The notes under the pieces were generated by a model. The model was not told the origin of the DNA. It saw only the letters and a list, made by a program, of their open reading frames with translations, and ran no database searches. This document shows, one piece after another, positions 5,421-48,586 of a stretch of 48,586 bases of DNA. This DNA is from an uncultured Pseudomonadales bacterium (GTDB lineage: Bacteria > Patescibacteriota > Microgenomatia > UBA1400 > PJMF01): positions 1 to 48,586 of the forward strand of contig CAYUES010000002.1 in the NCBI GenBank assembly GCA_964443885.1. Reading direction: 5' to 3'. Each line of letters starts with the position of its first letter. Position 1 is the stretch's first letter. The translations under genes were made by a program, and so were the position numbers.

Positions 5421-5471
5421 GCCACAGTAAATAAACTTACTAAGTAATCGCAGAACAAACTATTACAGCAT

Positions 5472-5981: not shown

Positions 5982-5983
5982 TT

Positions 5984-7312: not shown

Positions 7313-7376
7313 GGAGCTACTAGGCCAGGAACATACGCGAAACCGAGTTGTACTCTTGAACTGAGAAGCCACAATC

Positions 7377-22702: not shown

Positions 22703-22813
22703 ACGTAAACTCCAGGCCAAAGCCTGTTTTAATCAATAAAAACTGATACAGAAAATAATAGTAAGGCACTGTAGTTATACACAGTGTTTTGCACACAATG
22801 CAAGCAGGAAAAG

Positions 22814-24985
22814 TTACTGTTGGACGATTCGGCTCGGTGGTTTGTAGTTATCAATTGAATCGGGTGTATAGGTGCGTCGTTCAGAATCTGCCAACGATTG
22901 GGTTGATCCAGGAACATTATTTGCTGCAGCAGGTTGTCCTGGAGTTGTTGGTGGTGCCGTGCCTAAGCCAGTTGGCGTTGCTTGATTGGTAGTTCCTGGT
23001 GTTTGTTGCTGTAAGCGCTGTTGTAATTGTGGCTGTCCACTCGGCATGCCAGGACGGGGTTGCGCAGTCTGTGGAGTTGCTCCTGGGCGTTGATTATAGC
23101 CAGAAGGTTGTGGCGGTTGGGCTTTTTGTAAGGCAGCATCAGCTTTAGCTTTTTCGGCAACTTTATTGCGACGGAAGACTTCTTCCGGATTAGTGGTGAT
23201 GAGCCCATGTTCTTCTTCACTCGCCACAACGCGCAGCGCCACGTGATTTTGTCCCGCAAAGAAAATTCCCTCTCCAACGTCAGCAGTCACGAGTAGTTGT
23301 CGTTCACCTTGAGAAAGATAAAATGTTTCGGCCAGAACTGGAATCGAAGCAGTTGATTGTTTCATCAAAAATTGAATTGAAGCGTTAGTCACGATTGCTT
23401 TTCCATAATCGGTATGCAAAAAGTCTTCAACGTCTTGGGTAATCGTGGTGATTCCTAAGTAGTACTTACGAGCGCGCTTGACCATCGAGAAAATAAACGA
23501 AGCAGAATCAGGATGCTTCATGAAGTACCAGGCCTCGTCGATAACCAAAATACGTTTTTTGAGATCTTTACGAATTCTAGTCCAGATAAAGTCCAAAATG
23601 ATGTACATGGCGATTGGCCGCATTTCATCTTCCATTTCTTTGACAGAAAAGACGGTCAGTTGGCTTTTGATATCGATGTTTGATTTTTGGTCGAAAATTC
23701 CGCGGAACGAACCAGTGATAAATTTTTCTAATCGAGCAGAAATGTCATCGGCGTCGTGATTTTCCATACCAATCAAGGCTTTGTAGACGTCTTCCATCAG
23801 CGGTGGTTCATTAACTTGGGTAGCTGGATCTGGCGTAATGCCCTTGGCTTTGTAAGCAGCCACCAGTGCGCGGTCGAGGAGTGCATCTTGTTGTGGAGTC
23901 ATCGTACCAAGCATTACTTTGAGCAAGCCGTGGAGTGAAATAATCTTTTGGCCAAGTTCGTTTTCACCTTCTTCGTATAAGTTGGCCAAGTCAAATGGAT
24001 TGATTTTGGTATCAGAGCCAAAGGTAAAGTTGATGTACTCACCACCAGCTGCCACAGTCAGATCTTCGTACTCATGCTCAGGATCCATGACGATCACTTC
24101 AGCCCCAAACATCATTTGGCGCAACACTTCGAGTTTAACGGTATACGATTTACCAGCACCAGACTTGGCAAAGATCACCATATTGGCATTTTCCATCTTG
24201 AAGCGGTCGAAGATCACCAGCGAGTCGTTGTGCTCATTAATGCCGTAGACGATACCGGTTTCCATGGTCAGTTCAGAAGAAGTAAACGGAAAGGTTGTCG
24301 CGAGCGAAGTGGTGTCCATGTTGCGCGTGACGAGGAGTTTGTCGGTGCCCATTGGCAGTGTCGTTTTGAAGCCTTCGTCCATCTGGAGAGTCGCTTTTTT
24401 GGAAACAATCAAGAGTGCTCCCAGTGTCGATTGAATACTCTTGGTAATCCGATCGAGTTCTTCTTTGTCTTTGGCTTGAATCGTAATGTACAACCCAAAC
24501 TGGAAAAACCGCTCCGAGCCTTTGGCTAGTTCTTCACGAATAAAGCGGGCATCTTCGAGCTTCACTTCAGTATTAATGTTAGAAATCTTGCCCGAGCGCA
24601 AATCTGACTGAATTTCAGCTTCCATTTCTGTAATCTTGCGCTTCAAGTTATCCAAGATCTCGGCTGAATCAACAGGAAAAACAAACATTGAAGTGGTAAT
24701 TTGGTGCGGATAGTTGATGAGTGGTGCCAACCAGTTGGCTGGTACGGTGCGGGGATAGCCGGCGATAAAAAGGGTGCGGGTGTAGGTCGAGTTTATTTTT
24801 TGATACGTAAAGTCAACTTCGATCGCTTCGGGCGCAATAATATCTTGGATCGTGACGAGACCGCGTGAAAACTGTTGGAGTTTTTCGAGGTTTTTTTGTT
24901 CTTGAACTTGCTCAGGAGTGAGCCCAGAATCTTTCTTTTTCTTGCCAAACGGTAAAGCTGGTAGGAGTGATGATAAATCAGGCAT
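22814..24985 (-). CDS. VirB4/TrbE/PrgJ-like type IV secretion ATPase with a Pro/Gln-rich C-terminal tail
   Basis: 723 aa. Walker A is AKSGAGKSYT and Walker B is RILVIDEAWYFM. The N-terminal region has a VirB4-type layout (IQDIIAPEAIEVDF...TRTLFIAGYPRTV). The last ~110 aa are low-complexity P/Q/T. Confidence 0.85.
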   Translation of the reverse strand: MPDLSSLLPALPFGKKKKDSGLTPEQVQEQKNLEKLQQFSRGLVTIQDIIAPEAIEVDFTYQKINSTYTRTLFIAGYPRTVPANWLAPLINYPHQITTSMFVFPVDSAEILDNLKRKITEMEAEIQSDLRSGKISNINTEVKLEDARFIREELAKGSERFFQFGLYITIQAKDKEELDRITKSIQSTLGALLIVSKKATLQMDEGFKTTLPMGTDKLLVTRNMDTTSLATTFPFTSSELTMETGIVYGINEHNDSLVIFDRFKMENANMVIFAKSGAGKSYTVKLEVLRQMMFGAEVIVMDPEHEYEDLTVAAGGEYINFTFGSDTKINPFDLANLYEEGENELGQKIISLHGLLKVMLGTMTPQQDALLDRALVAAYKAKGITPDPATQVNEPPLMEDVYKALIGMENHDADDISARLEKFITGSFRGIFDQKSNIDIKSQLTVFSVKEMEDEMRPIAMYIILDFIWTRIRKDLKKRILVIDEAWYFMKHPDSASFIFSMVKRARKYYLGITTITQDVEDFLHTDYGKAIVTNASIQFLMKQSTASIPVLAETFYLSQGERQLLVTADVGEGIFFAGQNHVALRVVASEEEHGLITTNPEEVFRRNKVAEKAKADAALQKAQPPQPSGYNQRPGATPQTAQPRPGMPSGQPQLQQRLQQQTPGTTNQATPTGLGTAPPTTPGQPAAANNVPGSTQSLADSERRTYTPDSIDNYKPPSRIVQQ

Positions 24986-25428: not shown

Positions 25429-26808
25429 TTAAATTTCTGGAAGTGGTGGTAAATCTGATGCAGGATCATTTTTTAATGCGGGGTTAATTTCACTCGTTGC
25501 TGTAGCTGGTTCAGTGGACAGAGACTGCAGTGTTGCATCCAACTCTTTTTGAATATCTGCTTCAGAAGGGGCTGGTGGAGCTGCTGATTCAGGTGGCATA
25601 GGCGGCATAGACGGAGTAACAGCGGGGGAAAAGCTAGGTGGTGCTACGGGAGCAACGGGCTCTGGTGGAGCTTCATAAGCAGCTGGAGGCGGAGTGGGAG
25701 GTGGTGCTTGTTGATAAACAGGAGTTTGCGCTACGGGTGGTTCGGGTACGGTATCAACTGCAGGCAGTGGACTGGAGTTACTAAGCTCACTTACTGTTTC
25801 TGGAGCAGCAATATGAATCTCGGGCACGGGCATTGTTTCAAAAGTATTATTTTCTACCGCTACAGTTTGGGTGTAGCTGGGTTCTGGTGGAGCCATATCT
25901 TGTTGCGGTGCTACGGGTGGTTCGGGTACGGTATCAACTGCAGGCAGTGGACTGGAGTTACTAAGCTCACTTACTGTTTCTGGAGCAGCAATATGAATCT
26001 CGGGCACGGGCATTGTTTCAAAAGTATTATTTTCTACCGCTACAGTTTGGGTGTAGCTGGGTTCTGGTGGAGCCATATCTTGTTGCGGTGCTACGGGTGG
26101 TTGAGTAGGAGCAGTATTCATAAATGTTTCCTGTATGCTTGCCTTAACAAGCGGTGTTGAGTAACTTGTACTTTCGCCAATTTGTTGGCCCTCGACTGCT
26201 TCTGGATTATAGCGAATATAGAAAAGTTGAATGATTTCTTGGGTGCTTAGCTGTCTGGAATACAAGCCAATCCGAGCAAACTGCGCAATCAAGTGATCAC
26301 GTTTCGGATCAAGAAGGTTTTGTGCTTTCTCAATAATCAGTGAACGCTCTACGGTGCTAATATCGAATTCTTTACTACCAGGTAAAATACTGGAAGTAGC
26401 CAAGAAACCCATTTCCAAAGCACTGGCGGGGATAACTACATAAAACTTTTTATCCAAAACATTGCGTTCATGAATCAAATTGCCCACAAACTCACGATAC
26501 ATGCGAATACGACGACGCAGTGTTTCTGTTTCAGCAATCAACTCTTGTTCTTGCAGAACTTTCAAGTAGGAAGTAACGTCTTTAGTCTGGGAGTGAATAA
26601 TAATTTGAACGGTGTAGTTGAGGGAGTTCAAGAGCCCTGCATATGCATACATAATCGCATCTTGCTCTTCTTCTGCTAGCAGTCCAAAGTTCATCGCATC
26701 AACGGTTAAGATCGTCGAAACAGTTCCATTCTTCATGATTACAAAGTTGTTTGTAATATCGTAGATATCCAGAAACTGCTGGGTGGTTGATTGGATAATA
26801 TCAGACAT
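25429..26808 (-). CDS. T4SS-associated protein: N-terminal domain resembling the non-ATPase N-domain of VirB4, a duplicated 60-aa unit and a Pro-rich tail
   Basis: 459 aa. The N-terminus TQQFLDIYDITNNFVIMKNGTVSTILTVDAMNFGLLAEEEQDAIMYAYAGLLNSLNYTVQIIIHSQ follows the VirB4 N-domain logic. No P-loop is present. Two identical 60-aa repeats are followed by a PPPTPPPAAYEAPPEP... tail. Confidence 0.55.
   Translation of the reverse strand: MSDIIQSTTQQFLDIYDITNNFVIMKNGTVSTILTVDAMNFGLLAEEEQDAIMYAYAGLLNSLNYTVQIIIHSQTKDVTSYLKVLQEQELIAETETLRRRIRMYREFVGNLIHERNVLDKKFYVVIPASALEMGFLATSSILPGSKEFDISTVERSLIIEKAQNLLDPKRDHLIAQFARIGLYSRQLSTQEIIQLFYIRYNPEAVEGQQIGESTSYSTPLVKASIQETFMNTAPTQPPVAPQQDMAPPEPSYTQTVAVENNTFETMPVPEIHIAAPETVSELSNSSPLPAVDTVPEPPVAPQQDMAPPEPSYTQTVAVENNTFETMPVPEIHIAAPETVSELSNSSPLPAVDTVPEPPVAQTPVYQQAPPPTPPPAAYEAPPEPVAPVAPPSFSPAVTPSMPPMPPESAAPPAPSEADIQKELDATLQSLSTEPATATSEINPALKNDPASDLPPLPEI
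25730..26102. repeat. Perfect 180-bp tandem direct duplication (2.07 copies) inside the 25429..26808 CDS
   Basis: 25741-25920 and 25921-26100 are identical base for base in the printed sequence. Identity extends 11 nt to the left and 2 nt to the right. Confidence 0.95.
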
Positions 26809-26871: not shown

Positions 26872-28065
26872 CTAATTACTTCGCACCTCAATTGGCTCTA
26901 CAATTTTGCCGGTTAATGTAATGGTTAATGGATGAAATTTAAAAGGATCTTTTTCAACTTCAACAATATAACTACCACTTTCAAGTGGCGTTGTAATGAA
27001 GAATTGACCTAACGCATTACTTTTCACTGCTCGAAGGACGTGTCCATCACTGGTTTTGATTTCAATAATTGCGCCGGGAATCAGCTCATCTTTGGGTGTG
27101 AGAATCATTCCCACCAGCTTATTGGGCGCAGTTGGCTTGCTTGGGAAGGGCAGAGCCGCATTAAATTGAGCGTCTTCTGAATTGGAGAAAGAATCACTCT
27201 TTGGTCCAGTTTGTTCAACAAAAGCGCGCTCTTGCGGAGTAATACTTTGTTGATGGACTAACGCTGCTACTTCTTCGACATCAATTCTATTGTCAACAGT
27301 AACCGGAGCATTCTCTGGGATCGACAGTCCTTGCGCAACCTCATTAGTATTAAGATAGGCATCTTTTTTATTTGTTTCGGTATGTTTATGCTCGGGATCA
27401 ATCACGTACGTTGAGTCCAGACTCTCTAAACCACCCAATGCATTACTGGCAATGCGTTCTTGTAGCACCGGATCCTCAGCAATCGTAGTTTGGCGCATGC
27501 TCCGAACCCGCACGGTAAGATTGGGTTTTTCTTTACTTTCGAGTTGCGGCTCAATTCTGAACTCTTGGACAACTTGGGTTTGAAAAATGTCTAAAATTGA
27601 AGACATACGCAGTCGCTCCTCTGGAGAAAAATCACTGTCATCTCCTTCTGGATTGGTAGAAGAAATAAACTCTTTTATCCGTTGTCGACGAGCTGGACTA
27701 AGATCGAGTTCTTGCAAGTCCAGAGTGTTTGCTTGATCACCTTTGAATAAAAAAGCAGGTGGAATGTTGTAGGCACGTTTCCAGAAAAACTGAGTTGGTT
27801 TATAGAGAATACCAATAAATGTAGAAATCCAGTGACTTAATGGACGTTCTTCAATTGGGATAAAAGCTGCCGCAAAGCCACCACCAGCAAACACAATCAT
27901 CAGCGGCCACTTCAATAGACCAATCAAGTTGGTTTGATAAATAGCTAAAGCAATTATTACGCCAACGGCCGCTTCGCCAAACTGCTTCAACGTCATACTA
28001 CCCACAATATGAAAGCGGTAGTTAGTAATGTCTTGGGGTATTGGATGTTCTTTCATGGTGGGCAA
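26872..28065 (-). CDS. PrgI/VirB3-like T4SS membrane protein fused to a long extension ending in a carboxypeptidase-regulatory-like beta-sandwich
   Basis: The N-terminus IPQDITNYRFHIVGSMTLKQFGEAAVGVIIALAIY plus a second TM helix (LMIVFAGGGFAAAFIPI..RPL) matches the PrgI-family pattern. The C-terminus is GMILTPKDELIPGAIIEIKTSDGHVLRAVKSNALGQFFITTPLESGSYIVEVEK. Confidence 0.6.
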   Translation of the reverse strand: MPTMKEHPIPQDITNYRFHIVGSMTLKQFGEAAVGVIIALAIYQTNLIGLLKWPLMIVFAGGGFAAAFIPIEERPLSHWISTFIGILYKPTQFFWKRAYNIPPAFLFKGDQANTLDLQELDLSPARRQRIKEFISSTNPEGDDSDFSPEERLRMSSILDIFQTQVVQEFRIEPQLESKEKPNLTVRVRSMRQTTIAEDPVLQERIASNALGGLESLDSTYVIDPEHKHTETNKKDAYLNTNEVAQGLSIPENAPVTVDNRIDVEEVAALVHQQSITPQERAFVEQTGPKSDSFSNSEDAQFNAALPFPSKPTAPNKLVGMILTPKDELIPGAIIEIKTSDGHVLRAVKSNALGQFFITTPLESGSYIVEVEKDPFKFHPLTITLTGKIVEPIEVRSN

Positions 28066-35148: not shown

Positions 35149-35159
35149 TACTTCTTTCG

Positions 35160-36907: not shown

Positions 36908-39900
36908 ATGGCAGGTCCAGAAAACAATCCAAATCCTAATAATCAAGATCGGCGTGTGAATCAAGCTCGTCCTTTTGATGCTACTCAAGTTGCTTCGTAT
37001 ATTCAAGAAATAGGTTCTGGTCTAGATGCAGCTGCACAGGCTCTGGAGGTTGGTAATCATGGCGCGGCTCAAGAAGCCTTAGATAGAGCAATGGATCTGT
37101 TTAATTGGGTTAGAGTTAATTATGGAGTTACTAACCCAGGCGAAAGAATAGCAATTCCAGGTAACTATTTAGTAAATCGCGAAAGTATTATCCTAAAAAT
37201 CAAGGCAGCGAAACTTAAAGAAGAAGCACAAATTCGAACAGTAATTACTGCATTGGAACAAGGAAATCAACAGGATATCCAAGATTTGATAATTTACTAT
37301 CGTGATACTAATAATCAACAAGGTTTGCTAAATTTGATATTGGCAGTGCCAAACAACAGCAGAAATACTGTAAATAGTATCCTTATTTCTTTAGGAATGG
37401 CTGCTCCAGGGCTAGAACAAGCGGAGCCTGAGGTAGAAGCTCCAAGAGGTATGGAATTCGATGCTGCCCTACAAGAGTTAGCAACTTTCTTAGCTAATCT
37501 AGATGATGAAAGAACGCTGCGTGGTGATGCTGCTGTAAACCTAGATTTAGATGCATACATTGTGAGAATGCGTGAGTCCCTTGGCAATTGGTCTCCTGAG
37601 CAACGACGAGAAATACTAAATATAGTACGCCAAATCCGGAATGCTTTAGCACAGCCTTTAACAGCAGAAGTGCCTACAAGAAGGCAGCCAGAAGTTCAAG
37701 GAAATCAAGAAATAACGCAGTTAGAACCATTCGTACAACTTCAAAATCAAATAACAGAATATACAAGACTTCTTGACGAATCAGCCAGATCTAGTAATTT
37801 AGCTAATTTTGATCCTCGTAGAGATAGAACTCCAACAGCTGCAAATCCTGATGAACAGCTTCCTGCGGAAATACCACTTGCCGAACTACAACGTCAGCTA
37901 CAGTTCTGCATCAAAATATTACCTGAGCGAAGTGCTGATATCTTACTCAATGCTCAAATCCAAAAACTGCAAGATACCCTATTTGCTAAGGCTAAAAATA
38001 CTGTTAATAGAATGAAGAAACATGCTGAAAATATTGATAAAAATGCGCACGATGAGTGGATCGCTTCATCAGAAAATGTTCAATTTGCATCTAATGTCAC
38101 TGCTCTTGAAGAAGCAACTTTAGATGACTCAACTTTAGATGCAGATATAACTGCGTTGCAAAATCTTAGCACAGAAATTACTGCAGCAGATCGTGCACTA
38201 CCTCCTCAGCTCTCTTTAGCAGAGAGAACTCAATTAGCAGATCAGTTTGAAGATGAAGATTTTGACTTTTTAAGTCAAAATCAAAGAAAAACATTTACGG
38301 TACTTCAGCAACGTATAGAGAAAGAAATTGCTCGCAGGAATGCGCGTAAAGGGGAATTAACTTCCAGAACAGATCGTGAATTGGAATTCAGGAACAAAAT
38401 CGATGACGTTAATACAAAATTGGCAATTGCTAAAGAAGCTGCTTTTAGCATTGATACGGAAACAGATCAAGTTACAATTTCATTTAAACCCGTCAGAGAT
38501 TCCTTAAGGGAACTTGAGGGCTTATTATTACCAGGCTTAGAAGCTGAGCTAAACGAGATCAGACGCAATATAGACACTGGTGAATTTTATCAACGTAGTA
38601 AAGCATTTTTTGCTGCTCATGAATCCATTGAAAGCATAGAAAAAGGTGCCTCCGCTGTTTCTGCTGATGCGGAAAAGGTTATTAAAAATAGAATTTTTGT
38701 TGTTATGGAGGGTTTAATTGCCAGTATGAAACAATATGGTAGTCCAGAAGCAATAGTCAAAGAGCATGAGCAACATTTGAAAGTTTTGAAAGAACAAAAT
38801 GGTGCTTGGTTATCAGTTTCTTTCATCTGGGGTGATGGTGGCAAGGCGGAATTTTTATATGGCAATGAGCAAGGCTCAAGAAAAATTACACCACATTATA
38901 ATACCTCAGATCATGGTATGACTGGTGGAACTGTTCGAGATTTAATTAATGGCGGTACGGAACTTAAGGGGTTGCCAGGCTGTAATGCTCTTTTACATCA
39001 GAGAAGAAGATATGTTAGGAAAGATGTCGCGCGAGCTATTGGAACGACAGTATTGGAAGATGGAGATGTTACACAAAGCACCGTACCTGGTAACTCTGAA
39101 GTTGTGGCTGTAGATTATCCTGAAACTGCGGGCGCGTGGATTTATGACGTACTAGATCAATATTTTGAAATGACAAAGTCTGATTTTGATGGAGGATTTT
39201 TACCGATTAGTGATAAAACAGCTACTCCTGGTGGTAAGAACTTTGAACCAAGTAGCTCTGCCTTTGAGACAGTTACTAAGAACGGCATGACTATAGAGAT
39301 AGCACGAAACGTACTGATTATGGATATAGTTGATCCCGATACAGGTGTAGTAGCTCACGAGCGGTATGTTGTGCCTAAGTCTGTGGTAGAGGGAGGCAAG
39401 GATGCAACTTCAATCATACATAAAAATCACAACGCAGTAATCGATTATATTCTTAACCTCGAAACTCAAAGAGCGGCAAAGCTTGGACTGTCAAAACCTC
39501 GATTTGATAGAAACTTTGTTAGAAGAACTTTCCGCGCATACTTATTATCTACTTGGAATCATTTTGCTTTAGCCTCTTCTACGGTAGAAGGTCTCTCCTG
39601 TACGAATACGTATGCTCACTTATGGCCGCAGTATGCTGTTAAAGAACGTGACCAAGGTGTAGCAAGGTACAATCCACTTTCTACTGTGTTTATCTTTGGT
39701 TATAAGAATTTTTCACCATGGCAATTATTTGGAAAAAATATTGCTACTGAAGTGGAAAAAGTTTTACGTTCTAATGATGCTTATGACGATTATGAATATC
39801 TGCTGCACTCCTTTATTAGTTTGGCTGATACTTCTACCCGGCCAAAGAAAAAACATCAAACGGTTTTTTCTCCACCACTGCGTATTATATCCGCAGGTGA

Positions 39901-40546
39901 AGTTCCAGTTCAAGGTCGTATGAAGTCAATGCGATTTGGGGAGCAAAATGATGGTCGAATTTTAACATTAGATGATGTAAAAGATATTTATGGCAATCGA
40001 TTATATCCAGTAATGGATCTAGAGAGAGTTGGTCAATACTTTGCGACATTTAGTGGTTTTGGTAAAAATGCACTGACTGTTGTTGATAAAGTATTAATGA
40101 CTGATATTAAGGCTTGGGATAGTAGCACCCTGCTGACTGAGCTGCGTAAAGATGCGAAGTATGCTGGTATTTTCTTCCCAGTTGTTGGTAAAGAAATTGA
40201 AGAAAAAGGTGGTGAAAAAATTATTCTGCACCATAAAGACTCAAAGGGTAATCATGAGGAGACAACTGTCTTTTTAGATTTCATGGATAGATTTGCTAGT
40301 TACATTGTGCTGTTAAAGGCACTGATGTTGGTAATGCCCGCTCAATTCTATGAAGGTGGCTCTAAGAGCTTACATTCAGTTGAATCGTACTTACAGAGTG
40401 AACGAGGGCGTAATGTTATTAGTGAGCACACACAACATGTTATCTACAAAATCATTGAGAAACTGTTTGGTGCCAAAGTCTTCCGCCGCGAACTAGGTGA
40501 AGAAATACTCAAAGAGTTTTCCAAGTTTGCTCAGTTCCAAGTTTAA
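36908..40546 (+). CDS. Large hypothetical protein (1212 aa, orphan; the N-terminal half looks helical or coiled-coil)
   Basis: Uninterrupted 3.6-kb ORF with no TM helix, signal peptide or recognisable catalytic motif. A terminator hairpin lies downstream. Confidence 0.6.
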   Translation: MAGPENNPNPNNQDRRVNQARPFDATQVASYIQEIGSGLDAAAQALEVGNHGAAQEALDRAMDLFNWVRVNYGVTNPGERIAIPGNYLVNRESIILKIKAAKLKEEAQIRTVITALEQGNQQDIQDLIIYYRDTNNQQGLLNLILAVPNNSRNTVNSILISLGMAAPGLEQAEPEVEAPRGMEFDAALQELATFLANLDDERTLRGDAAVNLDLDAYIVRMRESLGNWSPEQRREILNIVRQIRNALAQPLTAEVPTRRQPEVQGNQEITQLEPFVQLQNQITEYTRLLDESARSSNLANFDPRRDRTPTAANPDEQLPAEIPLAELQRQLQFCIKILPERSADILLNAQIQKLQDTLFAKAKNTVNRMKKHAENIDKNAHDEWIASSENVQFASNVTALEEATLDDSTLDADITALQNLSTEITAADRALPPQLSLAERTQLADQFEDEDFDFLSQNQRKTFTVLQQRIEKEIARRNARKGELTSRTDRELEFRNKIDDVNTKLAIAKEAAFSIDTETDQVTISFKPVRDSLRELEGLLLPGLEAELNEIRRNIDTGEFYQRSKAFFAAHESIESIEKGASAVSADAEKVIKNRIFVVMEGLIASMKQYGSPEAIVKEHEQHLKVLKEQNGAWLSVSFIWGDGGKAEFLYGNEQGSRKITPHYNTSDHGMTGGTVRDLINGGTELKGLPGCNALLHQRRRYVRKDVARAIGTTVLEDGDVTQSTVPGNSEVVAVDYPETAGAWIYDVLDQYFEMTKSDFDGGFLPISDKTATPGGKNFEPSSSAFETVTKNGMTIEIARNVLIMDIVDPDTGVVAHERYVVPKSVVEGGKDATSIIHKNHNAVIDYILNLETQRAAKLGLSKPRFDRNFVRRTFRAYLLSTWNHFALASSTVEGLSCTNTYAHLWPQYAVKERDQGVARYNPLSTVFIFGYKNFSPWQLFGKNIATEVEKVLRSNDAYDDYEYLLHSFISLADTSTRPKKKHQTVFSPPLRIISAGEVPVQGRMKSMRFGEQNDGRILTLDDVKDIYGNRLYPVMDLERVGQYFATFSGFGKNALTVVDKVLMTDIKAWDSSTLLTELRKDAKYAGIFFPVVGKEIEEKGGEKIILHHKDSKGNHEETTVFLDFMDRFASYIVLLKALMLVMPAQFYEGGSKSLHSVESYLQSERGRNVISEHTQHVIYKIIEKLFGAKVFRRELGEEILKEFSKFAQFQV

Positions 40547-40672: not shown

Positions 40673-42535
40673 CTAGCCGTAGCCAGTTCGTTTAGTAACA
40701 TCTGGAGCTGGGGTATTACTGACATTTTCACCGGTCTCAGCTTTCTGAGCGTCAGCATAGCCCTCCATACCTTTTCCAAGTTCATTAGTTTGGCGATTAG
40801 CTTCTCTAAATTCAAACTTGGCAATTTGATCACCAAATAAGTATCTTGTAGCAGCTTGTGCTGATTGATTGATCGCTGTTTTTCCAACTTTCATAGCAAA
40901 TCCTGGAGCGCGAGGTACTACTACTGGAGCGAGGGCACCCGCAATTGCGCCTCTTCTTATGCCTTCTCCAACTGGTCTACCAGTGAGTGCATTAAATCCT
41001 CCGTACATCATACCACCAATACCGCCACCTGTCGCCATAGCAGCTCCAGTAGTTAAGTTGCGGCCATTAATAAGTCCAGATCCTGGCACAGCCTTGTCAC
41101 CTCTCCATCCAGATTGTAGGCCTTTCCAAGCAAATCCAGCGAGCATTGAGCCGAGTCCACCATCACCAGCGCCAGCTGCTTTCTTAACTTCTTTGACGAT
41201 GTCTGGTAATCCTAAGATAATTGCCAAGCCCAAGAGGGGGCCGATTAGGTTCGCAGCACTGCCATTGCCCAACAAGAAGGGTGGCATAAATCCACCTTCA
41301 GCACCACCAGATACTGTGACACTGCTGCCAGCTTGACCAGTAAACTCAATGTAAATAATGAGCATCAATAATACTGTCGGGAAGGCGAGTAGGTTGCCGA
41401 TAATACCTTTGAGCCAAGGCCAAAACACGTCTTTGCCAGGAATTGCACCAAACATAAGGATCAATGGACTAGCTACCACGTACAAAATAATTGCCGCGTA
41501 TGACTTCAATAACTCGAAGAAAAGTCTAACTGCACCAATCAAAACAGCAACCGTCAGTACCATCGTTAGTGTTAAACCACCAATAATGCCAGTTAAGTAG
41601 GTTCCAATGTTTGCAGAATCAGCTGCAGCTTCCAGAATTTCTGTTACCAAGTTGATATTCATACCAGCAGCGCCAGTACTCATATTAGCCTTAAAAAGGA
41701 AGCCAATTAAGTTTAAGATACTAAAGTTAATGATGTTGCCGCCAGTAAGCGTGTCGCCAGACATAAGGTTGAAACTAATGCCATCAAACAATCCAATAAT
41801 TAAGAACATTAATACATACATCATGTCGATCATGAAGCCAGCAATTGCATAGGAAAAGGTAACAAGAATCAAACTAATTATTACTGACGGAATGGCTTGT
41901 TGCGCAGTAACAGCTGCCTGTCCACCCAAGCGTTTACGTAACATGATCATAAAGCCAATTACTACGAAAATAATAATAAAGAAGAAGTAGGCAACATTGC
42001 GGAAGACTTTCCAAAGATTAAGAATTGGATCAAGTGAAGCAAAGCCCAATCCTTGTGCATAGGCAGGCTGGACAAATCCAGCTGTGTTGATGACATCGGC
42101 CACATAGGTGCCGGTGTGAGCGGCGGGATGTTCGTACATAAAAGCACTCAAATTAAGCACACCCGCGAAGATGCCACCTGATCTGCCACTGTCTGATCCT
42201 TCAGGTGTTGCGCCACCACTCCCACTAGGATCTGGAACTGCACCCCCGCCACCGCCAGGAGTACCTTGTTCACCATAGGCGATATCCATCGCCCATTCCA
42301 TGGCAGCAAAACGTGTAGTGTATTTAACTAAACATTCCAAAGAAGGAGTATCACAGTTTTTAGTTGCTTCTCGGTATTGATCAAACTCAGTTTGAGAAAA
42401 TCGGTAGCTATAGCCATTGGAGTCGGTAGTGGTAAATGTATCATCAGCCGGATCTGCTGGGCTCGTTTGTGCAGCTACAACAGAAGTACTCAGAATGAAA
42501 AAAGAAAGCACTAGGAGTACAACCCGTTTGAACAT
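40673..42535 (-). CDS. VirB6/TrbL-like polytopic T4SS membrane protein with a signal peptide and a Gly-rich C-terminal region
   Basis: Start chosen at ATG 42535 (MFKRVVLLVLSFFILSTSVVAAQ). There are at least 6 TM helices (for example VAYFFFIIIFVVIGFMIML and IISLILVTFSYAIAGFMIDMMYVLMFLIIGLF). The C-terminus is Gly-rich. The assignment rests on architecture and context only. Confidence 0.5.
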   Translation of the reverse strand: MFKRVVLLVLSFFILSTSVVAAQTSPADPADDTFTTTDSNGYSYRFSQTEFDQYREATKNCDTPSLECLVKYTTRFAAMEWAMDIAYGEQGTPGGGGGAVPDPSGSGGATPEGSDSGRSGGIFAGVLNLSAFMYEHPAAHTGTYVADVINTAGFVQPAYAQGLGFASLDPILNLWKVFRNVAYFFFIIIFVVIGFMIMLRKRLGGQAAVTAQQAIPSVIISLILVTFSYAIAGFMIDMMYVLMFLIIGLFDGISFNLMSGDTLTGGNIINFSILNLIGFLFKANMSTGAAGMNINLVTEILEAAADSANIGTYLTGIIGGLTLTMVLTVAVLIGAVRLFFELLKSYAAIILYVVASPLILMFGAIPGKDVFWPWLKGIIGNLLAFPTVLLMLIIYIEFTGQAGSSVTVSGGAEGGFMPPFLLGNGSAANLIGPLLGLAIILGLPDIVKEVKKAAGAGDGGLGSMLAGFAWKGLQSGWRGDKAVPGSGLINGRNLTTGAAMATGGGIGGMMYGGFNALTGRPVGEGIRRGAIAGALAPVVVPRAPGFAMKVGKTAINQSAQAATRYLFGDQIAKFEFREANRQTNELGKGMEGYADAQKAETGENVSNTPAPDVTKRTGYG

Positions 42536-42542
42536 GGTATAT

Positions 42543-42548
42543 AGTATA
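42543..42548 (-). promoter_or_regulatory. -10 box TATACT (TGGTATACT), 7 nt upstream of the ATG at 42535 (leaderless-type)
   Basis: The minus strand reads TTGGTATACT-ATATACC-ATG. Confidence 0.45.
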
Positions 42549-42684
42549 CCAAAACTCTGACATAAAGGGTAAAGTAAGTAGTTGATTTTGAGCAAAAAAA
42601 TATTTTGAATATAGACAACGATTAGTATAGTGTGATAACAAATAGTAATACTTATATTGTTTGCGCGTATGCGGAATTACTTAT

Positions 42685-43605
42685 ATGATTGATGATAACC
42701 TTTCAAGTCAGGTACAACACTTAGTTGATTCTGCGACAACAATTTTTATTATTTTTCCGAGTATTGCATCGGCTGATCACTTGGCAGTGGCGGCAAGTTT
42801 ATACCTGAGTCTCGTGCGTGCACAAAAATCAGTCGGCCTTGTTACCACAGATACAGCCGCAGTTCTGCAAAACGAGGGGAGTACTATTATCGGACTTGAA
42901 AACACCCAACAAGACTTGGGAAATCAAAACTTGAGTATTAGTTTTCCGTACTCGCCGGATCAAGTTGACAAAGTTAGTTATCATGTTGGCGAAGAAACAA
43001 ACAGATTTTTTCTCTCGATCAAGCCAAAAACCGGTTTTCCACCGCTTGATGCCAGCAATGTTGAGTTTTCCTACACCGGCGCATCAGCGGATCTAGTGTT
43101 TCTAATTGGAGTAAAAGATTTAGAAAGTTTAGAGCAATTATACTTTGGTTATGAACAACTGTATCAAGACACGCCAAGTATTTCGGTAAATTCGTACGCG
43201 ACATCTTTTGGCACAGTTAAGATTGATAGTGGCAGTGCGAGTTCCAGTAGCGAAGTGATTGCTCAATTGTTGCCAATCCTAAGTTTGCCAATTGAAAGCG
43301 ATACCGCCACCAACTTACTGTATGGAATTGAATCTAGCACAAAAAATCTCTCTTCACCTACGACTTCAGCAGAAACTTTTGAAGCAGTAGCCCAGTTGTT
43401 GCGAGCTGGTGCCCGTCGAAGTTTCAAACGCAGCTCTGCAGAACCACACCCAAAAGAAGCCTTCAAAGAGTCAATCGTCCATGAAGTTCCAGAATCTGAA
43501 GCTACAAAACGAAAAAATGGCAAAGCTAAAACACCAAAACTAGAAAGTTCCAAAAAAGATTCGATGCTGCCACCAGCAGACTTTACGCCAACAAAGCGAA
43601 TTTAA
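42685..43605 (+). CDS. Hypothetical protein, possibly a degenerate DHH-family-like fold
   Basis: ATTIFIIFPSIASADHLAVAASLYLSLVRAQKSVGLV and ADLVFLIGVKDLESLEQL resemble NrnA-type motif I/III positions, but the canonical DHH/DxD residues are not evident. The track start at 42661 is a TTG. Confidence 0.35.
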   Translation: MIDDNLSSQVQHLVDSATTIFIIFPSIASADHLAVAASLYLSLVRAQKSVGLVTTDTAAVLQNEGSTIIGLENTQQDLGNQNLSISFPYSPDQVDKVSYHVGEETNRFFLSIKPKTGFPPLDASNVEFSYTGASADLVFLIGVKDLESLEQLYFGYEQLYQDTPSISVNSYATSFGTVKIDSGSASSSSEVIAQLLPILSLPIESDTATNLLYGIESSTKNLSSPTTSAETFEAVAQLLRAGARRSFKRSSAEPHPKEAFKESIVHEVPESEATKRKNGKAKTPKLESSKKDSMLPPADFTPTKRI

Positions 43606-43610
43606 TTTTT

Positions 43611-46600
43611 CTAAGAATCAGTACAAGCAGGATATGGGTAGCCCACTGGAGGTGCTACTGGATCTTTACCTGCTGTTTCGAGTAATTTGCGCCATAGTCT
43701 CCAGACATAGTCAGCTTGAGGAGTGTGCGCATTCCAGATTTGTCCATATTGATTGTCACCACGTTGGGCAAATGCTCTAATGAATTGGCTTTCGTTATCG
43801 TAGTAGCGTTGAGCGCCAGTCCACAATAGTAATCGGCAAGCCGAGTCTGCCGCCGCCGCAATATTTGTTGGTGTAGAAAAATCAAGGCCTACAGTCGTAA
43901 AGGTGGGAGGTTGATGCGTAATACATTGGTTTACGCCTGTAGCATTGCCTCGAGTCCAAGTATTCCAGGCGCCCGGCGTGAACTGGAATACACCAAGAGC
44001 GCCCACCGCATTTGGTGTCGTATGGTTTGTATATGACTGACTTTCTGAGTGGGCAGTGGCCAGGACCATCCAAGGATCGCAGCCATGCCTCTGAGAAGCG
44101 GCCGTGATTGCATTCCAAAGTTCTTGAGATGGAGGATTAAAAACCACATTATTTCCACTCCAGTAGGGGATCTGGAAACTAGAGATGTCTGTGAAGTCAG
44201 CCGAGATATTGGCACCCACACCCACTTGTGCAACGGAAGCACCACCACATGCATCAAGCAAGAAGTCTTCGGTGCTGTCACAGTTTTCAAGATACTTATG
44301 CGTTAAACTCTGAGCGCGTTGCAGCGCCAATTGGATTGTGTACATCCAGTAGCCAAGTTTTGCTCCCAAGACACCAGCGGGGCTAGGCTCCTGATCAGTA
44401 CCAAAACTAAAGCCAAAGGTTTTATTTACACACTCAAAATCAGTATATGGTGTGCCAGTACCATCGATCTTGGTAACTTCTTTACAGTCATATTTATCTT
44501 CAAAAGTGTGACTAGCCTCACCGCCTGTAAAAATAACTTTGTCATCTTTTATTTCAAACTGTTGATATGCCATAGATTTTTCTTTTAAGTCAGCAATCTG
44601 ATTACTGCTAAAGAACGTTCCTGACATTACCGCCTCGACGGTCTTTAGGTCATATCCAGCGGGATACACTATAAAATGCTTGACGGTACGTGCTGGCTCA
44701 GAGTTACCAAATGCACCCCGATTTCCATCTACGACGTGAAAGACCGACTTCAAACCCCAGTGTTCACCACCTTGTTTATTGTTGTTTGTGTCCGAATACA
44801 TCGGATTAAGGGCAGAGTCAGCGCCAGAATCTGGCACAATGTGTGTTTGGTCGGTGAATAAGTTTTCCAAAAGTGTGACGCCCCAGTCAGCTCTAAAAAC
44901 ACGACCCGGATCATCGAGTGGATCAAGTTGCGCTGGATCATAGATGTAGTCAGCTTGTTCAAAAGCGTCTTCATCATCACAGTTGAGCGTGAATAGTTGC
45001 TCGCGTTGCGCACCACTCAGTTCATCTTTCTGAGCTTCGGTTAAAGCGCCATTTTCTTCTTCAACCATAGCTTGGGCATTAATTAAATCAACCAAGGCCC
45101 AAGTGAGTGGATCTTTACATTGTTGTGCACCTACGCCAGGTTGTGAGCCTACATTGCCAATTTGACACTCAATTTCCATTGAGTTGTCATCTTGCGGAAC
45201 CGTTGCCACGTATCGACCAGCCGTTAATAGGCGTTGTCGTGCTTCATCACCTCGCTCATCCATTTCTTGTTTAATGTGCGAAGGAATCAAGACATCACGA
45301 GTTACCATTGCTGGATCATTGAAGTCCGTGTGACCACTCTCAGGCTCACCAGCGATCGTGCCTTTATTGGTGACAATGTCTGGAATTTTAAAGGCAGTAA
45401 CGATCACCACGTGTGGCGGATCTGGTGCTTCACCAAGTTCTCCACGGTGCGGATGCTGGAACAAATTGAGCATTGAGTCAGTCAATGGCACTCGAGTTCT
45501 AATCGTGGTCACTAAAAATGCCAAGCGGTATGAGTTTTCAACCTGGAGTGGTAAACCCAACATCCCACGGCGGAACTCAGAGTCAGGGCTAGATACAATG
45601 CGAGTACAGGTTTCTTGATGCTCGATTGAGCCACTTGAATAGCTTTTATACTGGTCAAGTAACGCTTTCACGGTCATCGAAGTATTTGGAACCTCTGTTT
45701 CATATAAAGCACAAGCACTTGGATCGGCAAGTTTGTTGCACATTTCCTGACGTTGCAGGAGTGAAATTGCCGACTGCACACACCGTTGATTGCTGGTTAA
45801 CAGCGAATTAACAGCACCCGAGCGCATTTCTGCTAGGTTGTAGTTGTCCGTGGCAGGCTCTTTATATCCAAAGTAATCTTCAAGTGAACGTTTGAGTTGT
45901 GGTAGCCGATTATTATCTCGCAGAATTGGAATCAGTGCTTCACGATAATCCACACTCAAAAGAGAAACAACGCGTTCAGAGAGCGGATTGGGACCAATAC
46001 TGCCATCCGCACCCGGAATCCCAATACCTCCTAAAACACCACCCTCGCCACCTGGGCTGTTACAACCACGGCTACCGCAGCGCAAGTAGTCACGCATCGC
46101 TTCTGCGCCTGCTTGATTTAGCACAATATCAAAACCAGGTGCCGCGCAGCGTGCTTCATAGCCTTGTCGTACTAAGTCATCACGAATAATATCCTTGTTC
46201 TTTGGCTCGATGCCTTTAATGGGGTGAATATAGTATTTATCAAAATCATAGGGAATAGTTTGATAGTTGATGCTGGTGGTTGGATCAGTGCCATCGGCAT
46301 TGAGACGAGCAGGGGCTTCACCAACGTAGAACATTTGACCTCTCGCTCCAGCTTGGGCTGCTGCCTCAAGTGACAGTGCTTTTTCGGCCGGATTATAGTA
46401 GTGAGCTGAGCTCATATTGATGCCGGAATCAGAGTTAGTAAAGTCAAAGTGAGACTGTCCTTCATGTTGCGGCCCAGGACTGTCACACATCGTCGTGTTT
46501 TCACTGGCTTTTTGGCCAAAGCCTACACGTTCACCAGGAAACATTCGAGCAATGGCTGCACCCAAGTTTTTATAGTCTTCAATAATGGTTGCATCACCGC

Positions 46601-47270
46601 GACAGTGAATTTCATTAGCTACTTCCACACCCCAGAAGGAAGGGTGATCTTTTTCGTTTGCGACTCCCGCAGCATGAGCATAAAACTCATTACTGCTATT
46701 TCGAGCATTGATGGCATCAAGTGTTTCTTTAAACCAACCAGAACCAACCTTTGAAGGAAGACCAGGACTGCCATTACTGTAGTCACCAATCGCTACCAGT
46801 AGTTGGACTCCAGTTCCATTTGCAGCATCGAGTGCTTTGGTAACTCCTTGAGGTCCACCGGCTTTTGCAAAAATACGAACCACTGTTACTCCACATGAAT
46901 CGTGTAACCACTTGAAGTGTGCAGCAATTTTAGTGCCATCATGAGCAGCGCCACCAACATCCCACATATTTACACCGACAAACTTGCCGCTAACGGCTGA
47001 CTTTTCTTTTAAAACTTTGCAAATAGCTTCACCATCGGGTGTGCCTTGAAAGAACGCATACGGATCACTCGCAAAAATTTGGCTGTTTCCTTTGTTTCCT
47101 GAGTATTGCCAAACGATGTATCCTTCTGCACCAGCCGCAAAGAAGTCATCAATTTCTTGCGCCAAACTTTCAGCGGCAGATTGAGCAAGCACTCGGGGAT
47201 GAATAACACTCAGACCAACTATAAAAATTAAGCAGAAAAACAACAACCTGATGAACTTCAGTTTCCACAT
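43611..47270 (-). CDS. Large secreted multi-domain cell-wall/glycan hydrolase: N-terminal TIM-barrel glycosidase-like region and C-terminal SLT lytic transglycosylase domain
   Basis: The signal peptide is MWKLKFIRLLFFCLIFIVGLSVIHPRVLAQS. FWGVEVANEIHC is a clan GH-A-like NE motif (weak evidence). The C-terminus is CDPWMVLATAHSESQSY...GALGVFQFTPGAWNTW, with the SLT E-S and GLMQ-like motifs. Confidence 0.65.
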   Translation of the reverse strand: MWKLKFIRLLFFCLIFIVGLSVIHPRVLAQSAAESLAQEIDDFFAAGAEGYIVWQYSGNKGNSQIFASDPYAFFQGTPDGEAICKVLKEKSAVSGKFVGVNMWDVGGAAHDGTKIAAHFKWLHDSCGVTVVRIFAKAGGPQGVTKALDAANGTGVQLLVAIGDYSNGSPGLPSKVGSGWFKETLDAINARNSSNEFYAHAAGVANEKDHPSFWGVEVANEIHCRGDATIIEDYKNLGAAIARMFPGERVGFGQKASENTTMCDSPGPQHEGQSHFDFTNSDSGINMSSAHYYNPAEKALSLEAAAQAGARGQMFYVGEAPARLNADGTDPTTSINYQTIPYDFDKYYIHPIKGIEPKNKDIIRDDLVRQGYEARCAAPGFDIVLNQAGAEAMRDYLRCGSRGCNSPGGEGGVLGGIGIPGADGSIGPNPLSERVVSLLSVDYREALIPILRDNNRLPQLKRSLEDYFGYKEPATDNYNLAEMRSGAVNSLLTSNQRCVQSAISLLQRQEMCNKLADPSACALYETEVPNTSMTVKALLDQYKSYSSGSIEHQETCTRIVSSPDSEFRRGMLGLPLQVENSYRLAFLVTTIRTRVPLTDSMLNLFQHPHRGELGEAPDPPHVVIVTAFKIPDIVTNKGTIAGEPESGHTDFNDPAMVTRDVLIPSHIKQEMDERGDEARQRLLTAGRYVATVPQDDNSMEIECQIGNVGSQPGVGAQQCKDPLTWALVDLINAQAMVEEENGALTEAQKDELSGAQREQLFTLNCDDEDAFEQADYIYDPAQLDPLDDPGRVFRADWGVTLLENLFTDQTHIVPDSGADSALNPMYSDTNNNKQGGEHWGLKSVFHVVDGNRGAFGNSEPARTVKHFIVYPAGYDLKTVEAVMSGTFFSSNQIADLKEKSMAYQQFEIKDDKVIFTGGEASHTFEDKYDCKEVTKIDGTGTPYTDFECVNKTFGFSFGTDQEPSPAGVLGAKLGYWMYTIQLALQRAQSLTHKYLENCDSTEDFLLDACGGASVAQVGVGANISADFTDISSFQIPYWSGNNVVFNPPSQELWNAITAASQRHGCDPWMVLATAHSESQSYTNHTTPNAVGALGVFQFTPGAWNTWTRGNATGVNQCITHQPPTFTTVGLDFSTPTNIAAAADSACRLLLWTGAQRYYDNESQFIRAFAQRGDNQYGQIWNAHTPQADYVWRLWRKLLETAGKDPVAPPVGYPYPACTDS

Positions 47271-47277
47271 ACCTTGT

Positions 47278-47283
47278 ATTATA
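47278..47283 (-). promoter_or_regulatory. -10 box TATAAT, 7 nt upstream of the ATG at 47270 (leaderless-type)
   Basis: The minus strand reads GGTATAAT-ACAAGGT-ATG. Confidence 0.45.
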
Positions 47284-47354
47284 CCTAATTGCTCTCACAA
47301 GACGGACAGCAGTTTATGGCAATTTAATCTGATAGAAAAGCTTAAATTAAGAGA

Positions 47355-47837
47355 TTATTGTGGTCCAGAAGGTTGTTGTGGATAGGTGTCACCTGGCAAA
47401 CCTCGATTACTACCGGGAATAACGATTTTTGTAATGTCATCAATGCCAGTGAAGTTTGCCAGCAGATTTAGCACAATAAAACCACTTAAAGTAACAATTA
47501 TTCCGATGATCATGAATAGAAAGGTGTTTTTGGCAGTCTCGGTACCTTTTGTATTACCACCAGATACTAAGTAGCGGAATGAAGCCACGATCAACATCAC
47601 AAACCCTGCTAAGCCAATTAGTGTAATAATGACAGTGAAAATATTTGCGAGTAAACACTGTATGCCTTGCAGAGTTGCTACGTCAGATGCATTAGTGCCA
47701 GGGAGTCCAACACAGACGCCAGACCATTCTTGGGTCTGAGCATAGACAGGAGTAATCAGTGTTGAAAATAATGCCACTGCAAATATACAGCCACGGATAA
47801 AAGAAGTAAGTGTAGATGAAAGAGATCTGCGTTTCAT
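47355..47837 (-). CDS. TrbC/VirB2-like T4SS pilin, copy 1
   Basis: Start chosen at ATG 47837 (MKRRSLSS...). The signal peptide ends ...TPVYAQT. Two hydrophobic helices (IFTVIITLIGLAGFVMLIVASF and FLFMIIGIIVTLSGFIVLNLL) are separated by the short polar loop RYLVSGGNTKGTETAKN. Confidence 0.65.
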   Translation of the reverse strand: MKRRSLSSTLTSFIRGCIFAVALFSTLITPVYAQTQEWSGVCVGLPGTNASDVATLQGIQCLLANIFTVIITLIGLAGFVMLIVASFRYLVSGGNTKGTETAKNTFLFMIIGIIVTLSGFIVLNLLANFTGIDDITKIVIPGSNRGLPGDTYPQQPSGPQ

Positions 47838-47845
47838 AACGATAT

Positions 47846-47851
47846 AGTATA
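47846..47851 (-). promoter_or_regulatory. -10 box TATACT, 8 nt upstream of the ATG at 47837 (leaderless-type)
   Basis: The minus strand reads GCTATACT-ATATCGTT-ATG. Confidence 0.4.
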
Positions 47852-47868
47852 GCTGAATTAGCTCTTTT

Positions 47869-48408
47869 TTATGGATTAATTCGTTTAATACTCCAGAAAA
47901 TTTCATTAAATGATTCAAATCCCAGAATGTATGCGACCAGTTGAGCGGTGGCATACGCGGCAGAAAGAACGAGTATTCCAACTATTGCCGAGATAATTCT
48001 TTGACGTGCCGCATCAATTTTGCCTTTATCGCCACCAGATGTAATCCACTGTAAGCCAGCCATAATCAGGTTGAAGAAAACGAGCAGCAAGGCTAGTACA
48101 ATCACGATTTGTAAAATAAAGTTTATTAATGATCCAATATCTTTTATATAGCCTGTTGATGGTCTAACTGGAGTAAACAAACCACCGGAATCAGTAGCTG
48201 CGTTTGTAGTTGCCGTTTGAGCAGAAATTGTTGAAGTTGGATCAACTTCACGATATGTTGTTGTTCCATCTTCTTCAGTAGTACTGAGGTAGTAGGCGTC
48301 ACCACTTTTAACAAGTTTTAAGCCACTGGCTGAAACAGTTGGTATGTTGAGTGCGAACAAACAAAAAACAACAAAGAGAGCGGTGAAGAGTGATTTTTTG
48401 TATGACAT
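47869..48408 (-). CDS. TrbC/VirB2-like T4SS pilin, copy 2 (longer mature N-terminal region)
   Basis: Start chosen at ATG 48408 (MSYKKSLFTALFVVFCLFALNIPTVSAS). Two C-terminal helices (ILQIVIVLALLLVFFNLIMAGL and IISAIVGILVLSAAYATAQLV) flank the loop QWITSGGDKGKIDAARQR. TGTATAAT lies 21 nt upstream. Confidence 0.6.
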   Translation of the reverse strand: MSYKKSLFTALFVVFCLFALNIPTVSASGLKLVKSGDAYYLSTTEEDGTTTYREVDPTSTISAQTATTNAATDSGGLFTPVRPSTGYIKDIGSLINFILQIVIVLALLLVFFNLIMAGLQWITSGGDKGKIDAARQRIISAIVGILVLSAAYATAQLVAYILGFESFNEIFWSIKRINP

Positions 48409-48481
48409 ACAATTTACTTGATTATTTTTATTATACAACAGATCCGAATCGATAAATATTAGCCAATACTGCGTAGCCACC

Positions 48482-48509
48482 AAAAACCCCCTGTTAAACA
48501 GGGGGTTTT
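48482..48509 (-). terminator. Intrinsic terminator of a minus-strand unit lying mostly beyond the window end
   Basis: aaaaccccctg-ttaaa-cagggggtttt forms a perfect 11-bp stem. On the minus strand it is followed by a T-run. Confidence 0.55.
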
Positions 48510-48586
48510 CAATTTCTTGTGAAATTACGGTATTAGTTACTAATCCGTTGAATACTACTGAATGCACTGTTGAAGTTTTCGAATCC

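Follow-up and report, generated by a model that had tools for sequence, protein, structure and literature searches.

The far end of a 48,586-nucleotide stretch of DNA from an uncultured bacterium (contig CAYUES010000002.1, called the window here and meaning the whole stretch) raises the question of whether a run of secreted and membrane proteins encoded there belongs to a type IV secretion system (T4SS), and which parts of the apparatus they would supply. A sequence-only reading had proposed two VirB2-like pilins, a giant secreted hydrolase and a VirB6-like channel protein, all on the minus strand, with a plus-strand gene of unknown function among them. An ORF check of the window recovers all five open reading frames (ORFs) with the same ends and strands (Table 1); further, an independent protein-database gene call for 40673..42535 gives the identical 620-residue product, and the start methionines chosen for the plus-strand gene and for both pilins are shared by orthologues. 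The host belongs to the Microgenomatia and resembles Pacebacteria and Woesebacteria, and the homologues of the 620-residue protein all come from the Microgenomates group of the Patescibacteria (Pacebacteria, Woesebacteria).

The assignment to a T4SS stands. In particular, the two complete small proteins belong to an aligned array family in which 32 of 32 members match the VirB2-like profile PF18895, and genes for a VirB4 ATPase, a TrsD-like protein and a PrgI/VirB3-like protein lie in the same locus. Because these three genes are on the minus strand beside dnaA, the module belongs to a single 26-kb T4SS locus (22.8-48.6 kb), of which it is the far end, and is not a separate unit. The window is chromosomal, as it encodes dnaA, dnaN, yidC, jag, leuS and ribosomal protein L25, and its base composition is even along its length. 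It is quite likely that the region is the pilin-proximal end of a Patescibacteria-specific chromosomal T4SS, related to the monoderm (MPF_FATA) conjugation machines.

Systems of this kind have been described before. Quinonero-Coronel et al. (2025) reported an MPF_FATA-related VirB4 clade, positioned near dnaA and without a relaxase, and arrays of 2-11 pilins in Patescibacteria T4SSs that are especially common in Microgenomatia (PMC12102498). Wang et al. (2023) found the T4SS of the Saccharibacterium Southlakia epibionticum to be essential, including its series of pilins (SEML1_0006-0019; PMC10633639). The present locus is a typical member of the T4SS already described for ultrasmall Patescibacteria: like them, it is chromosomal, lies near dnaA/dnaN, combines VirB4 with TrsD and a PrgI/VirB3-like protein, carries a divergent PF18895 pilin array, and has no relaxase or nearby coupling protein. 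Here the last point comes from Pfam scans of the window's large ORFs, which found no relaxase, coupling protein or integrase; because the first two are missing from these scans, a non-conjugative role is favored, and the system would be used by an epibiotic cell to contact its host. The contrary idea, that the module is the remnant of an integrated conjugative element and not a resident chromosomal system, can appeal to the descent of this type of VirB4 from monoderm conjugation systems (PMC12102498), but it is very improbable, given the outcome of the same Pfam scans, the uniform base composition, the position beside dnaA with housekeeping genes embedded in the locus, and the recurrence of the same gene order in 80 species-level genomes and of the family in 370.

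The locus departs from the described Patescibacteria T4SSs in a fixed cassette that follows the array and consists of the secreted giant, a dead DHH protein and the 620-residue protein, none of which matches a Pfam or NCBIfam T4SS profile. In a synteny survey of 80 species-level genomes, where the denominators vary by gene, the cassette genes follow one order in all related genomes examined: the pilin array, the 1219-residue-type hydrolase, the divergent DHH gene, the 620-residue gene, and then the VirB3-like, TrsD-like and VirB4 genes. Two or more pilins are found in 55 of 55 loci, and in 59 of 61 the hydrolase gene separates the last pilin gene from the DHH gene. The plus-strand DHH gene is no stray insert: it is a fixed cassette member, found next to the others and in divergent orientation in 67 of 72 related loci. 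Downstream of the 620-residue gene, T4SS genes (for the 1568-residue giant, u340, or the PrgI-like, TrsD-like or VirB4 proteins) follow on the same strand within 10 kb in 38 of 54 loci. The novelty is incremental, and comprises a fixed four-part Microgenomatia cassette, a VirB6 candidate, a modular secreted enzyme and a dead DHH protein.

The first part of the cassette is the pilin array. Several results weigh against calling its products VirB2-like pilins, and they show no direct similarity to canonical VirB2. The two complete window proteins score 24.4 and 19.7 bits against PF18895, below its gathering cut-off of 26.6; canonical TrbC/VirB2 (PF04956) is matched by one of 32 array members (E 0.008); a profile search of PDB sequences with the array family returned no pilin; and an hhalign comparison with TrwL gave a probability of 0.6%, with a single sequence on one side, a setting that is uninformative here and in the comparisons with TrwI, PrgH, TrwN and P0133. 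Against these stands a test set of 32 small genes from the same position in four relatives, aligned as one family, all of which match PF18895 at E <= 0.01 (best 7.2e-12), so that the family membership of the window pilins is sound. Moreover, pilin 1 matches NCBIfam NF045849, a pilin-like conjugal transfer protein, at E 0.006, and the PF18895 pilins are encoded together with a VirB4-type T4SS, both in the window (VirB4 at 22814-24985) and by synteny in relatives. As judged from these profiles, the small genes form the last part of an array of several PF18895 VirB2-like pilin genes.

The design that had been read from the two pilins is fully seen by hydropathy and alignment, with signal-peptide-like N-termini and two hydrophobic helices joined by an SGGN/SGGD loop. 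Across the array, the alignment runs from a signal peptide through a variable N-terminus, a transmembrane helix, a W-I-T-S-G-G-D-K-G-K-type loop and a second transmembrane helix to a variable tail; pilin 1 has, in addition, a conserved Cys42/Cys61 pair. The lengths proposed for the mature N-termini, about 40 and about 105 residues, are revised. A heuristic sequence reading places cleavage after VYA33 in pilin 1 (VYA33|Q) and after VSA27 in pilin 2 (VSA27|S), and leaves about 28 and about 63 residues, respectively, before the first hydrophobic helix. The signal peptide, two hydrophobic helices, short basic loop and location in a T4SS locus are all shared with VirB2/TrbC (PF04956) of Gram-negative T4SSs. 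Unlike those, the window pilins belong to PF18895, occur as many tandem paralogues with long variable N-termini, and come from a cell with a single membrane, where a filament is a prediction.

Whether these proteins build an extracellular filament is a separate matter. They could instead stay in the membrane, as small bitopic channel subunits or as a pool with another role; the family is defined by sequence, and it has no similarity to the pilins of solved pili. This alternative is unlikely, as each pilin has the VirB2 design, the variable segments are the predicted exposed termini, and the equivalent array is essential in S. epibionticum, where it was interpreted as pilins (PMC10633639). A pilus on a monoderm cell is also less unexpected than the earlier interpretation held, as Patescibacteria pilin arrays were already published in 2023-2025 (PMC10633639, PMC12102498, PMC12857230), and a 2025 review describes the pilus-making potential of the Patescibacteria T4SS as unique among monoderms (PMC12857230).

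The array is longer than the pair first counted. At least three pilins are present in the window, the third of which is cut by the window edge, and 8-11 pilin genes stand here in those of the nearest relatives whose sequence extends far enough upstream; by comparison with them, the full array most likely has about 10. The proposal of a major and a minor pilin fails because the array is truncated by the window edge, which makes the pair an artefact. Pilin 2 has orthologues at L007:743-1294 (68% identity) and L010:3950-4471 (62%), where L-numbers denote related loci on public contigs. Pilin 1 is always the last pilin gene ahead of the hydrolase, and its positional orthologues are 56-76% identical to it, compared to its 24% identity to pilin 2; overall, the pilin paralogues are about 24-46% identical to one another. 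As positional orthologues are well conserved relative to paralogues, the array is old, with each position retained, which argues for distinct pilin roles rather than recent amplification. A divergent gene for an extracytoplasmic function (ECF)-type sigma factor (Sigma70_r2/r4_2) lies directly upstream of the array in relatives (L003:866-1390, L010:1-94); it is a possible dedicated regulator of the array, and the equivalent position is beyond the window edge. In a more distant subclade (L061-L096; for example, L070:4183-6173 and L082:4140-5904), exactly two larger pilin-like genes of about 290-400 codons are found upstream of the hydrolase, in place of 5-11 small ones.

The 620-residue protein had been taken as VirB6/TrbL-like by its architecture. 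Its polytopic nature and its position in the locus are borne out, and no HMM or profile match supports the name: in the hidden Markov model (HMM) searches that had been suggested as a check, the small proteins match the VirB2-like family PF18895, and the 620-residue protein matches neither TrbL/VirB6 nor a transporter. Its layout comprises a signal peptide, an acidic ectodomain of about 150 residues with invariant C61 and C68, about six long hydrophobic helices (residues 174-448) and a basic tail (residues 449-620) that is indeed Gly-rich (20% Gly). The family is broad, with at least 655 clusters that lack a Pfam annotation, and is carried by at least 370 GTDB species. One relative (P0053) bears the database name "phage tail tape measure protein", which is rejected in view of the polytopic core and the context, and is attributed to the Gly-rich tail.

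Three lines of evidence favor a VirB6 function. First, when the structure model was compared with 350,542 PDB chains by Foldseek, the top eight matches were all R388 TrwI/VirB6, and the next match was ten-fold worse. Second, the protein is the only unassigned one in the locus with at least five transmembrane segments. Third, its gene comes directly after the pilin, hydrolase and DHH genes in every related locus, ahead of u340-prgI-trsD-virB4. It resembles VirB6/TrbL (PF04610; TrwI of R388, PDB 7o3v and 8rt9) in being polytopic, in its long and mostly hydrophobic helices, and in its place next to pilin genes in a T4SS locus. The contrary evidence is also substantial. The fold match is sub-significant (E 0.07-0.47, TM-score 0.33-0.39; 0.37 for the match at E 0.07; model pLDDT 62.8), and the eight matches are effectively one protein in several chains. 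At E <= 1, neither the 620-residue protein nor 32 relatives has a match in Pfam, to VirB6/TrbL (PF04610) or to any other family; NCBIfam and PDB sequence searches likewise gave no match for the protein or for the relatives; and hhalign comparisons with two VirB6 profiles built from TrwI relatives, including one with a 104-sequence query, gave probabilities of 0.9%, 0.4% and 0.5%. The value for PrgH, as a single sequence, was 0.2%. Further, the protein differs from VirB6/TrbL in having no detectable sequence or profile similarity to it, in being about twice as long, and in its cleavable signal peptide, 150-residue disulfide-containing ectodomain and 170-residue basic Gly-rich tail. From the fold match, the lack of a competing candidate and the synteny, it is probable that the 620-residue protein is the functional equivalent of VirB6; true homology to VirB6 is held with somewhat less confidence.

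It is also conceivable, if rather doubtful, that the protein has nothing to do with VirB6, and is a lineage-specific membrane protein encoded there by chance, such as a platform for pilin assembly, an anchor for the giant, or a transporter. The negative outcome of all sequence and profile tests against VirB6, TrbL and PrgH, the sub-threshold structural match, and the unusual size, signal peptide and ectodomain would all fit such a view. However, the protein matches no transporter or other family either; VirB6 chains are the only structural neighbours of its model above noise; its gene is strictly syntenic with the pilin array, upstream of VirB3/TrsD/VirB4, in dozens of genomes; there is no other VirB6 candidate in the locus; and VirB6 proteins lengthened by additional hydrophilic domains have been described (PMC12857230). 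The assignment as a VirB6 equivalent also bears on the literature. In published profile searches of the Microgenomatia version of the system, VirB1 is rarely linked to virB4 and VirB6 homologues are "scarce", "suggesting extreme sequence divergence" (PMC12102498); the 620-residue family is the obvious candidate, and probably represents this diverged VirB6.

The giant had been described as a secreted hydrolase with an SLT domain; both features hold, and an N-terminal GH5 domain had been missed. As a single sequence, the full protein has no match in Pfam, NCBIfam or PDB. A profile of 15 homologues of its N-terminal region matches the mannanase structure 3ziz at E 4.4e-10, and about 17 more GH5 mannanases and endoglucanases are among its 19 PDB matches; PF00150 is matched by 6 of the 15, and by the window protein alone at E 0.12. 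A218-N219-E220 aligns with the ANE motif of 3ziz, and E318 (in FYVGEAP) is nearly invariant among homologues. The predicted catalytic residues are N219-E220 as the acid/base, H290/Y292, and E318 as the nucleophile, the last of which is called from its position.

The SLT signature lies in the C-terminal 190 residues. The window copy of the domain alone reaches PF01464 at E 0.05, and a profile of seven close orthologues had no PDB match; matches came after 76 distant domain copies had been gathered by scanning 1.84 billion representative proteins, which yielded 76 clusters with many architectures. PF01464 is then matched by 23 of 27 diverse copies (best E 8.1e-10), and all 26 PDB matches of the resulting profile (E <= 10) are lytic transglycosylases, related lysins or resuscitation-promoting factors, including phiKZ gp144, MltC, EmtA, T7 gp16 and Slt70 (best 3bkh, E 1.9e-4). 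The sequence HSE1076S...GALGVFQF holds the E-S motif and, after it, G-x-x-Q; its glutamate is kept nearly throughout the domain family and lines up with the ES of phiKZ gp144; by this alignment, E1076 is the SLT catalytic residue. Structure comparison gave a mixed result: an AlphaFold model of residues 345-1219 has no PDB fold match by Foldseek, and the top viral structural match, in BFVD, is an SLT protein (probability 0.98, E 0.075, TM-score 0.46), with moderate model confidence.

The region that orthologues share lies between the two enzymes. The Cys-rich middle has no Pfam or PDB match, and HMM positions of about 330-1000, a conserved stretch of about 650 residues, are covered in 67 of 68 orthologous ORFs. 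The enzymatic ends are a minority feature: GH5 is found in about 9-15 of 68 orthologues and this type of SLT in 9 of 61, and other relatives have SLT_3 (in one) or an Exo_endo_phos domain (in another). As a consequence of this distribution, the conserved role of the giant may be non-enzymatic, and the best description of the protein is a conserved core that bears exchangeable envelope-degrading ends. Like the VirB1/PrgK/TraG-type hydrolases, it carries an SLT-type domain within a large multidomain protein of a T4SS locus; unlike them, it pairs that domain with GH5 and not with a CHAP or NlpC/P60 peptidase, and its enzyme domains are dispensable across orthologues while the core is conserved.

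The same variation between species lends some weight to a different view of the giant, as a polymorphic secreted effector or a nutritional enzyme directed at host surface glycans, which would lie near the T4SS only for co-regulation and would have no VirB1-type function. The giant carries a Sec signal peptide and a promoter of its own, and wall opening could fall to a second large protein closer to virB4, for which relatives show a Peptidase_M23 signal. This is a possibility to be taken seriously, if not the favored one; on the other hand, its position between the last pilin and the DHH gene is fixed, and its conserved 650-residue core suggests a structural role tied to the apparatus.

The plus-strand gene encodes the remaining cassette member. 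A profile of five orthologues matches 8ioo in PDB at E 8.8e-6, as well as NrnA, TM1595 and other DHH proteins, and the protein has neither a signal peptide nor a transmembrane segment by sequence analysis. At the level of the fold, it resembles the DHH/DHHA1 phosphoesterases (NrnA, RecJ-like, GdpP) along the second half of the DHH domain. In contrast to them, the orthologue alignment has NSY at the DHH motif position and Gly in place of the motif II Asp, and in place of the DHHA1 domain there is a basic, low-complexity and disordered tail that ends in a conserved PPxD(Y/F)TP. From its motifs, the protein is predicted to be a catalytically dead DHH-fold member of the cassette; a role as a nucleotide-binding regulator, chaperone or secretion substrate is speculative.

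These parts can be combined into a proposed mechanism. The 620-residue protein would draw pilins out of the membrane and serve, above VirB3/VirB4, as the base of the channel or pilus. With its SLT and GH5 domains, the secreted enzyme would open peptidoglycan and a surface polysaccharide, respectively, in the bacterium's own wall or, more probably, in that of the host cell, and thereby let the apparatus reach its target. The most inclusive form of this proposal is tentative: the 620-residue family would be the "missing" diverged VirB6, and the giant's 650-residue core and the dead DHH protein would be obligatory unrecognised parts, or else a dedicated substrate, of a monoderm T4SS that bears a pilus and breaks through the envelope of the host.

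Each of the four minus-strand genes was said to have its own -10 box, which is supported: hexamers are found upstream of all four, and the analysis of their spacing gives counts above expectation. In particular, a TATAAT-like hexamer ends 6-8 nt before the ATG in 10 of the 26 ATG-start genes of the window, where 0.28 are expected; the same spacing is seen upstream of dnaN (19529-20638), virB4 (22814-24985) and the gene at 29362-34068. A generic sigma-70 promoter scan of the window was not above chance. The sequencing runs that hold this sequence are DNA metagenomes. The close hexamers at 10 of 26 genes point to separate promoters with mostly leaderless mRNAs, a type of transcript that seems frequent in this genome; of the four minus-strand genes, three would each yield a leaderless mRNA from a promoter of their own. 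Genes with close hexamers have no evident Shine-Dalgarno sequence. The predicted signal-peptide cleavage sites also follow a pattern, ending in A|Q in pilin 1 (VYA|Q), the hydrolase (VLA|Q), the 620-residue protein and most pilin paralogues, with VAA|Q also seen; the mature proteins would begin with Gln and be able to form pyroglutamate.

Other genes of the window add to the surroundings of the cassette. Between the 620-residue gene and the rest of the locus, 36908-40546 (+) encodes a 1212-residue protein with no signal peptide and no PDB match; proteins at its position in four relatives are 14-35% identical, compared to 47-66% for the 620-residue proteins of the same relatives, and by this measure it evolves fast. 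The 1568-residue protein at 29362-34068 (-) has several transmembrane segments and a weak Peptidase_M23 signal in relatives, and may be the candidate wall-opening enzyme nearest virB4. Genes for an EamA transporter and a riboflavin kinase at 34144-35534 (-) lie within the T4SS locus, and the pair recurs in L005, L007, L009, L017 and L019. Far from the cassette, 4718-7907 (+) has two camelysin/TasA-like (Peptidase_M73) genes among two S26-type signal peptidase genes, an arrangement that recalls TasA-SipW fibre systems. Many contigs that bear this Patescibacteria locus (L017, L019, L021, L070 and many more) are titled Pseudomonadales, Methylococcaceae, Limisphaerales or TM6; such titles are probably taxonomic mislabels or the result of bin contamination.

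Table 1. Positions of the T4SS-associated features in the 48,586-nt window, listed from its far end toward dnaA.
Feature	Position	Strand	Details
Third VirB2-like pilin gene, 3' end (17 codons and TAA)	48533..48586	-	Translation GFENFNSAFSSIQRISN, then stop; resembles C-termini of pilin 2 and L010:3401-3817
Intrinsic-terminator-like hairpin between pilin 3 and pilin 2	48483..48509	-	12-bp stem followed by T-run
Extended -10 box TGTATAAT	48430..48437	-	Ends 21 nt upstream of pilin 2 ATG
Pilin 2, 179 residues	47869..48408	-	PF18895 E 8.8e-4; signal peptide, two transmembrane helices, SGGDKGK loop
-10 box TATACT	47846..47851	-	Ends 8 nt upstream of pilin 1 ATG; leaderless-type
Pilin 1, 160 residues	47355..47837	-	PF18895 E 3e-5; signal peptide, two transmembrane helices, SGGNTKG loop
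-10 box TATAAT	47278..47283	-	Ends 7 nt upstream of hydrolase ATG
Whole 1219-residue modular envelope hydrolase, Sec-secreted	43611..47270	-	Signal peptide residues 1-29, VLA|Q
GH5 (clan GH-A) domain, residues ~30-340	46251..47183	-	15-homologue profile matches GH5 mannanases
Cys-rich conserved middle, residues ~341-1030	44181..46250	-	Retained by almost all relatives
SLT (GH23-type lytic transglycosylase) domain, residues ~1050-1200	43671..44123	-	PF01464 in relatives; E1076 in HSES
Cytoplasmic DHH-fold protein, 306 residues	42685..43605	+	Profile matches RecJ-like/NrnA structures
-10 box TATACT	42543..42548	-	Ends 7 nt upstream of ATG of 620-residue protein
620-residue polytopic membrane protein, probable diverged VirB6 equivalent	40673..42535	-	Topology, synteny, weak fold match
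PrgI/VirB3-like protein	26872..28065	-	PF12666 E 9e-5; 3' of 620-residue gene in relatives
TrsD-like protein, resembling VirB4 N-terminus	25429..26808	-	NCBIfam NF041427 E 2.5e-6
VirB4 ATPase	22814..24985	-	PF19044 E 6.6e-22, PF03135 E 3e-5; adjoins dnaA (20909-22720)

Overall, the picture of what this system is remains unchanged, and the cassette adds to the account of its parts. In the one Patescibacterium that has been tested genetically, epibiotic growth requires the T4SS genes, those of the pilin array among them, and the list of T4SS subunits in Microgenomatia is still incomplete; the cassette supplies concrete candidates for VirB6 and for accessory parts. The wall-degrading domains, in turn, are interchangeable ends on a conserved core. 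These assignments may be used to annotate thousands of "hypothetical" proteins, and to choose targets once a member of the Microgenomatia has been cultured.

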